From IMG/VR virus record IMGVR_UViG_3300001598_000043, positions 15,687-79,686 of that record: a stretch of 64,000 nucleotides of DNA. One strand, 5' to 3'. The notes beneath the pieces were generated by a model. It did not search any database, was not told where the DNA came from, and saw only the letters and a program-made list of their open reading frames with translations. The DNA is from a virus. Taxonomy: Duplodnaviria; Caudoviricetes. The position numbers and the translations under genes were made by a program. Shown piece after piece: positions 1 to 4,890 of the stretch (position 1 is its first letter; every line of letters starts with the position of its first letter).

Positions 1-852
1 ATCTGTATAGTAAATATATTCTAATGCACACTTCCAACACGAGCCACATCTATGTGGCATCAAATCATATTTAAATTTTTCACGTATGAGATTACCTTTG
101 TATTCCCTAAATCTAAAAGTTCCAATACAAGATTGGCTCAGTTTCAATAACTCTTTGTCTGATTTGAATGCATTCATACTCTCATTGACATTTTCTATTG
201 GTGTCATCAGATTAAAATTCGGTATTGTATCTTTAACAATGTCACGGTAGATGTTCCACATCTCAACTGTATCACCACCACACACTTCAAACTTATTATC
301 TTCCAAATAAGCTGTATTGAAATCTCCCATCGCAATGTTGCACGTTTCAATCTCTTTTGCATAATTGATAGCTGCGTTCATAATGATATAGTTCTTTAAC
401 GGATGTTCTATATACATATGGTTACCAGTCAATTTAATACGTTCAAATCTAATTGGTAGAGAAAGATAATTAGCAATGTTCTCAACTGACTTATACTCGT
501 CTGGATAACACTTATTTATCCCAATTAAATGAAATAAATATACATCATATCCTAACTCCTTATAATGTAATGCAGTGGCAGTACTATCTTTTCCGCCACT
601 TACACATACAACAACCTTATTATTGGATTCCAAATCAACTGTGTTAAACTTAAATGGCTTATATTTTGGATTAAACGAATACCCATAAGTCTCGAATATA
701 TCAAATATACCCTTAAAACTCTCTGGATACGACTTATTACTAAATAATCTATTAGATTCTTTTTCATCATAATCACTTGTGTAATAATACACATCGTCTA
801 TCAAATCCAATAATTCACTTACGTTTCTATACTCGTGTGACACTCGTTGCAT
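1..852 (-). CDS. QueC-like PP-loop ATPase (partial, runs off window start; absent from ORF track)
   Basis: Manual translation from ATG 852 is open to position 1: VVVCVSGGKDSTATALH (PP-loop SGGxDS), then SQSCIG and HRCGSCWKC (CGxCxxC zinc motif typical of the QueC family). Confidence 0.75.
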   Translation of the reverse strand, partial: MQRVSHEYRNVSELLDLIDDVYYYTSDYDEKESNRLFSNKSYPESFKGIFDIFETYGYSFNPKYKPFKFNTVDLESNNKVVVCVSGGKDSTATALHYKELGYDVYLFHLIGINKCYPDEYKSVENIANYLSLPIRFERIKLTGNHMYIEHPLKNYIIMNAAINYAKEIETCNIAMGDFNTAYLEDNKFEVCGGDTVEMWNIYRDIVKDTIPNFNLMTPIENVNESMNAFKSDKELLKLSQSCIGTFRFREYKGNLIREKFKYDLMPHRCGSCWKCALEYIYYTD

Positions 853-1668
853 TTATAACCACGCACCTCTTATATCTAAAATCCAATTATCTGTAAGCAT
901 TACTTTATTAACACCTGTAATTCCCAACTGTTGTAAATACTTACTTGTTATATGTATTCCGTCTTTATATTTAAATGGGTCTTCTGGAAAAGAATCTAAA
1001 CAGATTTTCATAAATATCTTCCAGAATAATCTGATATCATATTTATCTTCCTCGTCTTTTAATGCAAGTTTCTCTGTTAATTTAAATGCATTTGAGCCAC
1101 TAACCACTGCAATATTATCAACTACTTTTTCCACATACCCATAAAATTCTTTTGCATTGGATTTAAGTATCATATCAACTTCATAAGGTGTTTCACATAT
1201 ATGGCGTATGATATTCATCTCCTCTGCATCTACCTGATATTTAGATTCAGTATATTCCCTTAACTCATAAGGTGTATAAGCGTCCATATTAAATACAGAT
1301 GCTCTACTCTTTATAGTACCTAATAACTTATTTATATCTTGTACTGTAACTATAAAATATGCATTGTTTGGTGGCTCTTCTGTAACTTTTAATAATGCAT
1401 TAGATGAAGCACCACTCATAGCATCACAATCTGATATAATATAAACCACTTTAGAAGTAACTTTGTAAGCCTGTTCAATAATGTTTCTAACATCATCTAC
1501 TTTGGTTGACACCTCTACAACCTCTGCACCTATTGACTTCCCAATGTATTTGGCTATTGTTCTTTTACCACTACCTTGCATACCTACAAGTATACTAAAT
1601 CTTGGAAAGTTATTATCATTAATTAAATTATCTAACGTCTCTTTTAATCTATTCTGCCCTATCATCAT
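853..1668 (-). CDS. holB: Clamp loader delta-prime-like subunit
   Basis: GMQGSGKRT Walker-A-like, NALLKVTEEPP, TIKSRA motifs; adjacent to dnaX. Confidence 0.8.
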   Translation of the reverse strand: MMIGQNRLKETLDNLINDNNFPRFSILVGMQGSGKRTIAKYIGKSIGAEVVEVSTKVDDVRNIIEQAYKVTSKVVYIISDCDAMSGASSNALLKVTEEPPNNAYFIVTVQDINKLLGTIKSRASVFNMDAYTPYELREYTESKYQVDAEEMNIIRHICETPYEVDMILKSNAKEFYGYVEKVVDNIAVVSGSNAFKLTEKLALKDEEDKYDIRLFWKIFMKICLDSFPEDPFKYKDGIHITSKYLQQLGITGVNKVMLTDNWILDIRGAWL

Positions 1669-1772
1669 CCTCTTCCTCTTCTGGCTCTGGACACATTAAG
1701 TCACATAATTCTTCTGCATCTTTCCACTCACGTTCCGTAAAACCAAAATATTTACATAACTCTACTGTCTTT

Positions 1773-2270
1773 TCATTCATCTTTGCACTCCATCATTAAG
1801 ACTGATTCAATGATAACTTTTGGGTTTGTTTCATACTTGATATTATACTGTAATTTTATGATTACGTCCAATAAATCTTTGCATCTACCAAACTCATAAT
1901 CACCATACTGATTGATTTCTGATTCATATAATGATGGCATCTCAAGATAATCAAAATTTCTTAATATATCATACTTACAGATATCTAACAAAAACTTCAT
2001 ATAAGTCTGCACAAACTGTTTTAAATCCTTTCCACTCATATGAATGTTTTCAATTATCTCAATTACTTTATCTGACTTACAATCCATAATTGCATCGTTA
2101 AGTCTGAACATTGTTTCATAATCTGCAACACCCAATGATTTAATTACATTATCCAAAGTTAAATCTGTACTATATGATAGACATTTATCCATAAGTGTGA
2201 TTGCATCTCTCATACCACCTGAACTAATTTTTGCAATGTAATCTATTGCGTTTTCTTCATACGTTATCAT
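1773..2270 (-). CDS. dnaX: Clamp loader gamma/tau, C-terminal half (lid and collar domains) of split dnaX
   Basis: Begins ITYEENAIDYIAKISSGGMRDAITLMD (sensor-2 GGMRDA); own SD GGAGGT 6 nt before ATG 2270. Confidence 0.85.
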   Translation of the reverse strand: MITYEENAIDYIAKISSGGMRDAITLMDKCLSYSTDLTLDNVIKSLGVADYETMFRLNDAIMDCKSDKVIEIIENIHMSGKDLKQFVQTYMKFLLDICKYDILRNFDYLEMPSLYESEINQYGDYEFGRCKDLLDVIIKLQYNIKYETNPKVIIESVLMMECKDE

Positions 2271-2970
2271 CTATATACCTCCAATGTAATTTACCCGCAC
2301 TATTTCCAAATCTTGCGGCTTTGCTTAAATTTCCTATACCTGTTAATTCTGTGGCTTGTGTGACAGTATCATAAACTACCCCAGTTTCTATGCATTGTAT
2401 TCTTTTGCAATTAGATGGTCTAATTCCTTTATGATGTTCACTCATTCGTTGTTTAGATTCCTCATTATGATGAAATTCACCAACTTTTCTAATATATTTT
2501 GCAACTCTCGGGTCATCTTTAGTCAAACCCTTATTCCACGGTATTTGATTATGTTTTCTGTTGGAGTAAACTCCATTTTGCCAATGTTTTTTAACTGTTT
2601 TAGATATTGCAAATTTCTGCTCATCTGTTATGTGTCGATTTCGTAAAGTTTCTTTGTATTCATCTGTGTGATGATATCCATTAGTACCCTCACCACCTAA
2701 ACACTCATTGTATCCAAAATCTCTATTAGTTAAATTATATTCTGCAATTAGTTGTTTTTCCATAATACAAGCATCTTCTAAAGAGAGATTCTCTGCCATT
2801 ATTATATGTTCAATATTATCCCAACCATATTTCAATATAGCATTATAAAAATGAGGGCTACTTGCATAACCATATCCATTTTTCCATCGTGTCTTCGGAT
2901 TTTGTTTTGTTATACCAACATATCTCTTATTATTAGGCGCTACGTGCATGTATACATAATAACCGTTCAT
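2257..2970 (-). mobile_element. Free-standing GIY-YIG homing endonuclease with NUMOD-type DNA-binding repeats
   Basis: YYVYMH...KRYVGIT...RW...GYN..LGGEG; C-terminal HHNEESKQRMSE and KRIQCIETGVVYDTVTQA motifs; SD GAGGTG. Confidence 0.9.
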
Positions 2971-3001
2971 TTAGTCACCTCGCTAGTTTTGTTATATAAT
3001 A

Positions 3002-3030
3002 ATTATATTATAAAGATAGCAGTATGTAAA
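3002..3030 (-). promoter_or_regulatory. sigmaA-type promoter for the GIY-YIG gene
   Basis: TTTACA-N17-TATAAT immediately after the dnaX-N stop codon. Confidence 0.8.
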
Positions 3031-3034
3031 TAAA

Positions 3035-3565
3035 CTATTTCATATTCTCCTTATCTATAATATACTTCAATCTACTTACAATACCCTGCTGACTAATTCT
3101 GGTAAAATCATATCTCTGCACTCTTGAAAGAATAGTTTTTGGTATCTTCTGTGGGTCTGTTGTTGCAAAGATAAAAATAGTCTTTGCTGGTGGTTCTTCA
3201 ATTAACTTTAACATAGCATTCCAAGCACTGTTTGATAACATATGACATTCATCAAGAATGTATATTTTATATTCACTATCCAAACTCTGCATCTTTGCCT
3301 GTTGAATAATGTTTCTGATATCTTCAACTGAATTGTTACTAGCCGCATCCATCTCAATTGGATTACCCTTAAATTGATTTATTTCATTTGCAAAGATTCT
3401 TGCACAAGTTGTCTTACCTGTACCAGCACCACCACAAAATAGGTAACAATTCTTAATTGTACCAGTCTTTAACTGTTCTTTTAAAATTACTTTAATCGCA
3501 TCTTGTTCCGTAACATCATCAAATGTTTTCGGTCTATATTCAATTGCTAAACTCTTACTTGCCAT
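3035..3565 (-). CDS. dnaX: Clamp loader gamma/tau, N-terminal AAA+ half of split dnaX
   Basis: YRPKTFDDV, GGAGTGKTT (Walker A), ILDECHML (Walker B), NAMLKLIEEPP, TILSRVQRYDF; stops at KENMK. Confidence 0.92.
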   Translation of the reverse strand: MASKSLAIEYRPKTFDDVTEQDAIKVILKEQLKTGTIKNCYLFCGGAGTGKTTCARIFANEINQFKGNPIEMDAASNNSVEDIRNIIQQAKMQSLDSEYKIYILDECHMLSNSAWNAMLKLIEEPPAKTIFIFATTDPQKIPKTILSRVQRYDFTRISQQGIVSRLKYIIDKENMK

Positions 3566-3576
3566 AACTAACTCTC

Positions 3577-3816
3577 CTACTCGTGTAGTATGTATCTTGC
3601 ATATGTTACTGTGTTACCATATCTATTTCTGCAAGTCTCATCAACAGTTTCAATATTTAAAGTATCATCTTTTCTTAAATTCCACACAACAGCCGCAAGT
3701 CTTGTAATTCCGTATCTTTCAAAAGCTTCGATACTTGTTATACTTCCCTCATCTCTTAAATGTTTTAAAACAACCTGTGCCTGTGACTTACTTTCTATCT
3801 TCTCTTTGTTAATCAT
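3577..3816 (-). CDS. Small helix-turn-helix DNA-binding protein
   Basis: VLKHLRDEGSITSIEAFERYGITRLAAVVWNLR, a common phage HTH pattern. Confidence 0.65.
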   Translation of the reverse strand: MINKEKIESKSQAQVVLKHLRDEGSITSIEAFERYGITRLAAVVWNLRKDDTLNIETVDETCRNRYGNTVTYARYILHE

Positions 3817-4162
3817 TATTTCTCTCCTCTTCTCTCAAATAATTTTCAAGTTTTTTAAATAGTTTCTCATTGATGATAAAATGCTGTTTTCCGTCACCAA
3901 AATCAAATACAACTGTGGAATAAGGTTTATTCATAGCAAAGGCTTCTTCTTCGTTCTTCTTTATCCAATCACGTTTAATTGTAAAATTATCTCTTTCTTT
4001 GGTAACGGTTTTAGCCTCAACTAAAAATAAATCTGTTAATACATCACCCTTTATAAATGCCGTTGCACCACTATTTGATGTCTGTTTACCACCCAATGAC
4101 TTTGCAATCTTCTTCTCTTGCTGGTCACTGTAAAATCTTGTTGGTCTATTTGGTTTCAACAT
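3809..4162 (-). CDS. PD-(D/E)XK endonuclease, Holliday-junction-resolvase-like
   Basis: E..IAKSLGG...SGA...KGDV...LVEAKT catalytic pattern. Confidence 0.65.
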   Translation of the reverse strand: MLKPNRPTRFYSDQQEKKIAKSLGGKQTSNSGATAFIKGDVLTDLFLVEAKTVTKERDNFTIKRDWIKKNEEEAFAMNKPYSTVVFDFGDGKQHFIINEKLFKKLENYLREEERNND

Positions 4163-4328
4163 TTTTCTCGTTCTCCATATACATCTTGGCAGTCTCTTTT
4201 ACTATCTTTAATTTAAGAACATCGTCAATCTCTGCACCTACCATCTTTGCATACTTATCAACGTAATCCTTAAAATTTTCATTCTCTTGATATAACTTTT
4301 GCATCTGCCATCTCCTTAAACTTATCAA
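4146..4328 (-). CDS. Hypothetical protein
   Basis: Coupled ORF in operon. Confidence 0.5.
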   Translation of the reverse strand: MISLRRWQMQKLYQENENFKDYVDKYAKMVGAEIDDVLKLKIVKETAKMYMENEKNVETK

Positions 4329-4890
4329 AAAATTTTCTACTAGCCGTATAATCAGCCATATGTACTAATTTGCATACACGTACTATTTCTTCGTCATTTG
4401 AAAAGTCTAATAGTCTCGCTGATTTACTTCCCCACTGACCCATATGTTTCACTATGCCAGCATACACACAATCTACATAGGATGGTCGTATATTATCTAA
4501 ACTTAATATGTACTTTACCCATTCATCAGCTGCTATTAAATCGTGTGTAGTTACAGTATAACCACAATCCGTGTATCCGTGTTTAAATGTGTCGTGTAAT
4601 ATACAAGCAGCTATTACACTATCCTGTATATCTTCACTAAAATCAAACTCTTCTAATCGCATTAATTCGTTTGCAACTTCCACAACCATTTTTGTATGTT
4701 TCACCAATCCGTGTTCACCTACGGTAATACTGGGATGATACTTGCCACTACTTGAAGCTGGCACTGTCCAAAAATAATCAGGTACTTTGCACTCTAAAAA
4801 GGTAATAACTTTTTTACGTAGATTTGCATCTTGTATCATATTTAATTCGTCTTTAAGTAATCCTATTACACTACTCATAAATAACCTCAC
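4279..4890 (-). CDS. HD-domain phosphohydrolase
   Basis: PASSSGKYHP, GLVKHT, ILHDTFKHG, VHMADY. Confidence 0.8.
   Translation of the reverse strand: MRLFMSSVIGLLKDELNMIQDANLRKKVITFLECKVPDYFWTVPASSSGKYHPSITVGEHGLVKHTKMVVEVANELMRLEEFDFSEDIQDSVIAACILHDTFKHGYTDCGYTVTTHDLIAADEWVKYILSLDNIRPSYVDCVYAGIVKHMGQWGSKSARLLDFSNDEEIVRVCKLVHMADYTASRKFFDKFKEMADAKVISRE

Follow-up and report, generated by a model that had tools for sequence, protein, structure and literature searches.

We examined a 64,000-nucleotide (nt) stretch of phage DNA, here called the window, which comprises bases 15687-79686 of a 79,686-bp IMG/VR record from an uncultured phage known from a metagenome; CheckV rates the record as complete. 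In this genome dnaX, which encodes the clamp-loader ATPase, is present as two separately initiated halves with a free-standing homing endonuclease gene (HEG) of the GIY-YIG type between them. An earlier note on this DNA had proposed such an arrangement, and it is upheld by both the sequence and the comparative evidence. On the minus strand the order is a winged-helix gene, the N-terminal half (dnaX-N), a 64-nt gap, the HEG, the C-terminal half (dnaX-C), an open reading frame (ORF) of 43 amino acids (aa), and a delta'-like gene. The split gene consists of the following parts:

3565..3035, minus strand: dnaX-N, 176 aa, C-terminal KENMK, stop codon TAG; AAA+ core with Walker A (GGAGTGKT), Walker B (LDECH) and SRVQ (SRC-type motif), plus lid helix 1
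3034..2971, minus strand: 64-nt gap, the 5' region of the HEG cassette
2970..2257, minus strand: GIY-YIG HEG, a free-standing gene of 237 aa
2270..1773, minus strand: dnaX-C, 165 aa, first residues MITYEENAIDYIAKISSGGMRDA, overlapping the end of the HEG by 14 nt; further lid helices, sensor-2 GGMRDA (residues 18-23) and collar domain III

These are three separate reading frames, with coordinates and a gap length exactly as the earlier note had claimed, and the two dnaX halves lie 764 nt apart. There is no second dnaX in the 79.7-kb genome, and the split dnaX is its sole copy.

The model that we favor, and to which as a whole we give a probability of about 80%, is one of a gene in pieces. A mobile GIY-YIG cassette would have inserted in the loop between DnaX lid helices 1 and 2, turning one gene into two. 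The cassette would provide the stop codon of dnaX-N, a promoter-like element and Shine-Dalgarno (SD) sequence for the HEG, and the SD and ATG for dnaX-C. There would be no splicing of RNA or protein, and the two polypeptides would reassemble non-covalently.

Two halves of one DnaX and the position of the break

In profile searches, dnaX-N matched DNA_pol3_delta2 (2.9e-29), AAA (9.9e-16) and positions 1-171 of the 380 in phrog_5846, while dnaX-C matched positions 15-47 of the 49 in DNAX_ATPase_lid (6.1e-7), DNA_pol3_gamma3 (2.9e-8) and positions 175-287 of phrog_5846. Because dnaX-N ends at position 171 and dnaX-C begins at 175, the halves abut on the phrog_5846 profile. They also abut, without overlap or loss, when aligned to uninterrupted dnaX of related phages, a comparison that the earlier note had proposed: the whole DnaX proteins of Streptococcus phage Dp-1, Clostridium phages phiCTP1 and FA88, and Bacillus phage Flasso (341-368 aa) align end-to-end with the two halves. 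At the junction, dnaX-N ends two residues (MK) past the conserved ..KEN, and dnaX-C begins with Met followed by ITYEEN..GGMRDA.

When E. coli gamma is used as the reference, the alignment of dnaX-N covers gamma 11-202, with the end of the N half at residue 195 and the start of dnaX-C at residue 196, which puts the break at H195/I196. We also used the AlphaFold model of L014, the nearest relative with a whole DnaX (pLDDT 93.6; loci of relatives are given here by L numbers). This model has lid helices at 163-176 and 185-198, separated by a loop (177-184) and followed by the GGMRD residues at 200-204, and the break maps to the loop, which lies in the block with the lowest internal pLDDT (74). The length of the loop is variable among relatives, and phiCTP1 is ~30 residues longer there. 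The loop is thus a tolerant site, both in its low internal pLDDT and in its length variation. According to the alignment and the model, the break is inside the lid domain, past its first helix and one helix beyond the boundary of domains I and II; the earlier note had it at the linker between these domains, which is wrong. Since the break falls after lid helix 1, Walker A, Walker B and the SRC-type motif are on one chain, and the sensor-2 Arg and the collar are on the other.

Modeled alone with AlphaFold, dnaX-C has a pLDDT of 89.3, with values of 75-84 in the lid part and at least 90 in the collar, and a Foldseek search with this model ranked gamma/tau chains of the E. coli clamp loader highest (E 2e-5, TMq up to 0.70). 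The genome holds what identifies a DnaX, namely an AAA+ module, a lid with the sensor-2 Arg and a collar, and the partner genes for delta, delta' and beta, with domains I-III divided between two chains and not on a single polypeptide.

An endonuclease gene within a host gene can also reside in a self-splicing group I (or II) intron, and in that case a spliced mRNA would give one full-length DnaX. For phage GIY-YIG HEGs, I-TevI among them, residence in an intron is the classic arrangement, and the ORF of an intron may overlap the ribozyme core (PMC2988022). However, a cmscan search with Rfam of positions 1500..3900 at E<=10 returned no intron, just three chance snoRNA-like matches, and DnaX homology reaches the dnaX-N stop and starts at the dnaX-C ATG, so the sequence outside the HEG ORF amounts to at most ~70 nt before it, with nothing left after it. 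Non-coding room is likewise absent in sister cassettes: the gap in L095 is 6 nt, and the ORFs in L011 overlap at both junctions. The split allele of L022 has a 10-nt spacer and no insert. The earlier note's point that there is no room for a ribozyme is borne out by the Rfam result, by the ~70 spare nt and by the L095 and L011 cassettes, and we consider an intron very improbable.

dnaX is a frequent intein target. Four relatives (L024, L032, L066 and L078) carry continuous inteins at Walker B, in the form of in-frame, stop-free inserts that follow DnaX residue ~107 and are roughly 300-350 aa long; the L078 insert contains a 250-aa ORF in another frame (1870-2622), and long ORFs also occur in L029, L040 and L060. 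Fractured genes, in which the halves bear split-intein fragments and are joined by protein trans-splicing, are known with a free-standing HEG between the split-intein halves (PMC2677866), and they have the same order of half, HEG and half. In contrast, the junction residues unaccounted for in the window are two on the N side (the MK after ..KEN) and one on the C side (the initiator Met before ITYEEN), with no Hint-domain residues, so no intein fragment is possible and with it no trans-splicing. The insertion site also differs, being the lid loop and not the Walker B site, and we attach next to no probability to a fractured gene. What the window has is a host gene in the form of two ORFs with their own starts and a HEG between them, with neither intron nor intein, as in a gene in pieces. 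Stop-codon reassignment was rejected as well, because read-through of the TAG meets a TAA 8 codons on and sister loci stop at TAA or TGA.

Recurrence of the split and mobility of the cassettes

Using megablast, we found zero matches to positions 1600..3800 among GenBank phages, and relatives were reached by protein-level searches. A search with dnaX-C, restricted to proteins of 90-289 aa, returned 155 homologues, and 87 of the best 120 of these 155 are stand-alone C halves of ~160-175 aa. Their sensor-2 motif lies 17-21 residues from the N terminus (up to 30 in a few), so they start at the same loop. In 29 C halves that are 43-57% identical to that of the window, G18, R21, D22, A23, I24, T25, D28, K29 and C30 are invariant. 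Among relatives from IMG/VR and GenBank phages, 67 of the 76 distinct sequences are a whole DnaX. What stands between the halves varies among the split loci whose context was examined:

window, L082, L095, L097, L176: GIY-YIG HEG, 60-67% identical to the window HEG at the same site
L010, L011, L012 (= L013), L096: HNH/NUMOD4 HEG (I-HmuI-like)
L178:1318-2091 (Logan SRR18765423): N6/N4 DNA methyltransferase gene (Pfam 1e-47), overlapping both halves
L094, L177: small ORF of 70-91 aa
L022: no insert, 10 nt only

The split dnaX might be a disabled remnant in a phage that relies on the host clamp loader, or one in which a single half retains some role, with gamma never reconstituted. Many phages use host replication proteins, and an insertion that parts sensor 2 from the P-loop could inactivate the enzyme. 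Against this, at least 13 of the loci examined have two intact halves that retain all catalytic motifs, and sensor 2 is invariant in the C halves (87 clusters, 43-57% identity). The SD and start codon for the C half are kept at every split locus examined, and the split has outlasted loss of the HEG (L022, L094, L177) or its replacement (L178). Moreover, the phage retains delta, delta' and beta, which would be useless without a gamma-type ATPase:

853..1668, minus strand: delta'-like subunit, 271 aa, DNA_pol3_delta2 5.2e-21; partner gene downstream
G000:C1:13669-14595: delta, match 2.4e-77
about G000:C1:36465-36776: beta clamp, DNA_pol3_beta above the cut-off

The split pairs are too diverged, with saturated synonymous sites, for the ratio of nonsynonymous to synonymous substitution (dN/dS), and conservation of motifs and ORFs was used as the measure. 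We consider a disabled remnant unlikely, and from the conservation of both halves and their signals we infer that the halves would assemble in trans.

We noted some further features of individual loci. In L022:786-2878 (IMGVR_UViG_3300028591_000129), the N half has a 40-aa loop extension, the C half starts with GTG and a 300-aa GIY-YIG HEG lies upstream of dnaX-N; its 10-nt split may be a real HEG-less split or an assembly frameshift. A second GIY-YIG HEG is located directly upstream of dnaX-N in L097 (700-1693), and the 46-aa ORF before it duplicates DnaX residues 3-45 (72% identity), which may be a partial duplication of the target from another insertion. The P0045/L175 locus was a candidate for a second split site and was rejected because it is a 1-nt frameshift. 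It has one extra base between AASNN and GVE (L175:1851-2337, Logan SRR14160766), which could be a sequencing error or programmed recoding, and its downstream 280-aa product belongs to a cluster of 16 member sequences.

The window HEG, a single copy in the genome, matched phrog_314 (2.9e-30) and phrog_5123, annotated as "homing endonuclease with GIY-YIG motif" (2.7e-8). A putative GIY-YIG domain (YVY...YVG, with the invariant E71) makes up its N-terminal part, linker repeats resembling NUMOD3 follow, and the C-terminal part is a DNA-binding domain of the helix-turn-helix type. The last ~56 residues match PDB 8b6e (2.6e-7), so that there is a separate DNA-binding module. Among 75 IMG/VR loci with GIY relatives of this HEG, none has dnaX, and these relatives are located at other sites. 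The HEG would be active and homing; indirect signs of this are the patchy distribution of split alleles on the DnaX tree, their common flank signature and the diverged candidate site in HEG-bearing alleles (below).

The host gene bears signs of mobility. In a maximum-likelihood DnaX tree, with the split halves concatenated, split alleles are scattered among whole ones, and well-supported branches force at least 6 state changes. The GIY and HNH forms are not clustered by type on this tree. Split alleles have in common a flank signature, RL(K/R)YI(I/L)(D/E)xEN before the junction and MI(T/K/N)Y after it, that is absent from their whole sisters, and the identity between split alleles and whole sisters falls within 25-30 codons on either side of the junction. 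The junction itself differs between the two forms, reading ..EN(xx)-stop/MIxY with GIY cassettes and ..E(G/N)Yxxx-stop/MExKxxY with HNH cassettes, and this difference argues for independent entry of GIY-YIG and HNH cassettes into the same loop.

Expression signals and a candidate operator

The following sites were identified in the cassette and just downstream of it:

3030..3025, minus strand: promoter-like -35, TTTACA
3007..3002, minus strand: -10, TATAAT, with an N17 spacer from the -35
2981..2976, minus strand: SD GAGGTG, 5 nt ahead of the HEG ATG
2282..2277, minus strand: SD GGAGGT, 6 nt ahead of the dnaX-C ATG, in the Trp-Arg codons of the HEG C-terminal LHWRY
2224..2242, minus strand: candidate HEG-resistant site variant ATTACATTGCAAAAATTAG, encoding DYIAKIS, 28-46 nt downstream of the junction, matching a candidate recognition 19-mer (below) at 12 of 19 positions

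As the earlier note had described, the 64-nt gap contains a TTTACA-N17-TATAAT element and an SD for the HEG, and the last HEG codons supply the SD for dnaX-C. The promoter-like element (3030..3002) matches at 11 of 12 positions and is the top such site in the 3.7 kb from 700 to 4400. The -35, the N17 spacer and the -10 are kept in four of the five GIY cassettes (TTTACA-N17-TATAAT in L097, TTTACA-N17-TATATT in L176, and TTGACA-N17-TATACT in L082, where the -35 overlaps the dnaX-N stop), and the 5' region has 81% column identity across four GIY cassettes, compared with 60-67% for the HEG proteins relative to that of the window. L095 has no promoter element and a gap of just 6 nt, so translation of its HEG must use the message of dnaX-N. 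The GGAGG of the SD for dnaX-C comes from the Trp-Arg codons of the HEG HWRY motif in each of the five GIY cassettes, and CATTGGAGGT is found 5-6 nt ahead of the dnaX-C start. We found no terminator-like site between the genes.

An inverted repeat encloses the -10 in its loop, and its 3' arm extends into the HEG SD. In the window the arms, located roughly at 3020..3012 and 2992..2982, are eroded. Folding predictions give strong hairpins for L082 (-30.2 kcal/mol, z -7.4) and L097 (-18.3, z -3.5) and a weak one for the window (-11.5, z -1.95). A promoter within a hairpin that masks the ribosome-binding site (RBS) is the control logic of I-TevI, I-TevII, I-TevIII, segB and Aeh1 mobE (PMC2988022, section 12). 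In the window, the promoter-like element would be in use and the HEG would regulate itself. HNH-type cassettes have short inverted repeats right before the HEG SD, at L010:3450-3494 (TGTATCATTTAT...ATAAATGATACA) and L012:3437-3485, which suggests that hairpin control may operate in these cassettes too.

The arms of the inverted repeat match the dnaX DNA that encodes EYIAKIA in HEG-less alleles, just upstream of the sensor-2 codons. The L082 arm is AGTATATAGCAAAGATAGC, with its complement on the opposite side, and arms agree with the dnaX of the whole alleles L016 (19 of 20 positions) and L027 (18 of 19). The local arm score was 18, compared with 8.9 +/- 1.4 in 200 shuffles, none of which (0/200) reached 18. 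At this 19-mer, the five GIY-bearing alleles match at 7, 8, 10, 11 and 12 positions, the 52 distinct whole alleles at a mean of 14.7 (range 8-18), and the non-GIY split alleles at 11-17. The variants in the GIY-bearing alleles encode YIAKIS, YISKLC, YLARLS, YICRLS and YISKLS. We had predicted beforehand that C halves with K-L-S would be found behind a GIY HEG and those with KIA(D/E) would not, and this held in the loci with readable DNA, L176, L177 and L178.

The simplest explanation of these results, to which we give roughly even odds or slightly less, is that the 19-mer is the binding site of the HEG, that HEG-bearing alleles are resistant, and that the inverted copies around the -10 are an operator for autorepression. 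Likeness between operator and homing site, with autorepression, is documented for I-TevI (PMC2988022, section 10). Alternatively, the inverted repeat upstream of the HEG may be an RNA hairpin for translational control or an insertion scar, and its likeness to dnaX would then have no meaning for DNA binding. Published phage HEGs normally have a hairpin that sequesters the RBS and contains a promoter (PMC2988022), and the strong predicted hairpins of L082 and L097 fit such a role. Against a role in RNA only are the conservation of both arms in sequence with no compensatory change, their match to the dnaX target at 18-19 of 19-20 positions, the specific divergence of GIY-bearing alleles at the matching site, and the parallel with the operator and homing site of I-TevI (PMC2988022, section 10). 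We consider this alternative plausible and somewhat improbable; the hairpin and operator roles are compatible and not exclusive.

In the gene-in-pieces model, lid helix 1 of the N piece would pack on lid helices 2-4 of the C piece, and the collar of the C piece would anchor the pair in the gamma3-delta-delta' pentamer. Each ATP site would be formed from two chains, N contributing the P-loop, Walker B and SRC motif and C the sensor-2 Arg. Recognition by the HEG is probably of the conserved dnaX DNA for EYIAKIA, which begins some 30-45 nt beyond the insertion point on its downstream side; alleles lacking the HEG would be cut, and recombinational repair would spread it. The HEG is probably restrained by the two target-like sequences that flank its -10 in inverted orientation, which could act as an operator and, in read-through mRNA, as a hairpin partly covering the SD.

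Several observations weigh against parts of this account. The co-conversion signal in the flanks is modest. The 24 promoter-like sites found in 700..4400 are what chance predicts in this AT-rich DNA (21.9 expected). The hairpin upstream of the window HEG is weak and eroded (z -1.95), and hairpin arms are without compensatory changes, yet this fits conservation at the level of sequence. The difference between GIY-bearing and whole alleles at the 19-mer has a one-sided Mann-Whitney P of 2.4e-4, which ignores phylogeny; the GIY alleles are in different clades. The window HEG is below the cut-off of Pfam PF01541 (GIY-YIG), its Pfam matches being a spurious EF-hand_14 and sub-threshold NUMOD3 and I-TevI_DNA-bd, so its family assignment rests on PHROGs and on homologues; homologues with 61-67% identity match Pfam GIY-YIG, among them three HEGs in the alignment and that of L176, which is above the cut-off. 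Taken with the eroded hairpin and operator, the sub-cut-off Pfam score raises the prospect that the window copy may be losing its regulation or activity. Finally, Aeh1 NrdA-a/b need interaction tails that are much longer than the tails at this junction (PMC3045599), so assembly would have to rely on native lid packing.

In its broadest form, the argument would make the lid loop a standing landing pad that tolerates permanent fission, entered independently by GIY-YIG and HNH cassettes and also hosting further cargo, for example a methylase. The GIY cassette would carry two inverted decoy copies of its site, serving as operator and RBS-masking hairpin, and HEG-bearing alleles would have resistant variants. 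We hold this extended version tentatively, and rate it as a little more likely to be wrong than right. If it is true, the cassette would be a self-contained, self-limiting module for splitting genes, and the split gamma would be a natural AAA+ ATPase with sensor 2 on a separate chain.

The surroundings of the split gene have features of their own. The winged-helix HTH_39 gene (3577-3816, minus strand) directly upstream of dnaX-N is also present in L010, L012, L095, L176 and L177, a conserved synteny. The 43-aa ORF (1649-1780, minus strand) is strongly acidic, has the C-terminal residues EPEEEEDDDRAE and overlaps the dnaX-C end and the delta' start; small ORFs are at the same position in L096, L010 and L097. 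The order dnaX-delta'-delta is usual in Dp-1, phiCTP1 and most relatives, and in this genome it is broken by a QueC-like PP-loop gene between delta' and delta (window 1-852 and G000:C1:13669-14595). In L010 and L096 the same region has a radical-SAM gene. GC content did not reveal a foreign island.

Known split genes and the significance of a split clamp loader

Gene fission by free-standing HEGs is already known; here the split gene is that of a clamp loader. The T4 gp39/gp60 and Aeromonas gp43 genes are each present as two cistrons at a HEG insertion, and they still give functional replication proteins. The HEG with the T4 topoisomerase genes gp39/gp60 is mobA, and gp43 of Aeromonas phages 25 and 44RR is split by a seg-like gene (cited in PMC2988022). 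These are different proteins from DnaX, and neither is an AAA+ ATPase split within its lid.

The earlier note had likened the split dnaX to Aeh1 nrdA and mobE, and the analogy is apt. In both, a free-standing HEG divides an essential gene of DNA metabolism into two ORFs that are translated separately, and neither RNA nor protein is spliced (PMC2988022, PMC3045599). Control of the HEG by an RBS hairpin and a promoter, and an active site rebuilt from two chains, are also shared, as predicted from sequence for dnaX. Unlike in Aeh1, the host gene is a clamp-loader ATPase, and the HEG is of the GIY-YIG type (HNH in sister phages), whereas mobE is HNH. The insertion-derived tails of Aeh1 NrdA-a/b are essential for interaction (PMC3045599), whereas the junction tails of the dnaX halves have 1-6 residues. 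The same split of dnaX occurs in dozens of lineages with varied cargo, again unlike that of nrdA.

There are also parallels with I-TevI of the T4 td intron (PMC2988022, sections 10, 12), which has the same modular layout of GIY-YIG domain, linker and C-terminal DNA-binding domain, a promoter inside a hairpin that sequesters the RBS, and a target-like sequence overlapping the promoter. In contrast to I-TevI, the window HEG is free-standing, its target-like sequence is an inverted pair flanking the -10, and its binding and cleavage are predicted.

The earlier note knew of no clamp loader split in this way, and the full text that we searched contains no report of a HEG-split dnaX or of any split clamp loader, with most subscription journals outside its coverage. 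The window is not a singular case, since there are at least 87 clusters of stand-alone C halves. Added interest comes from the cut within the AAA+ lid, from the wide occurrence with interchangeable cargo, and from the candidate decoy-site operator.

In clamp loaders, textbook examples of AAA+ machines, the motions driven by ATP require that P-loop core, lid and collar be connected. With the lid cut after helix 1 and sensor 2 on the other chain, the split dnaX is a natural test of how much covalent continuity a clamp loader needs. The alleles form a rich series, consisting of whole, GIY-split, HNH-split, methylase-bearing and HEG-less split forms, together with the Walker B inteins of relatives, and the candidate recognition site and operator of the cassette lend themselves to testing. 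In annotation, halves of ~165-175 aa that are now unnamed or called partial "gamma/tau" would be pieces of one functional gene that pipelines overlook. The clamp loader would be a further member of the small group of essential phage genes known to withstand being split by a free-standing endonuclease.

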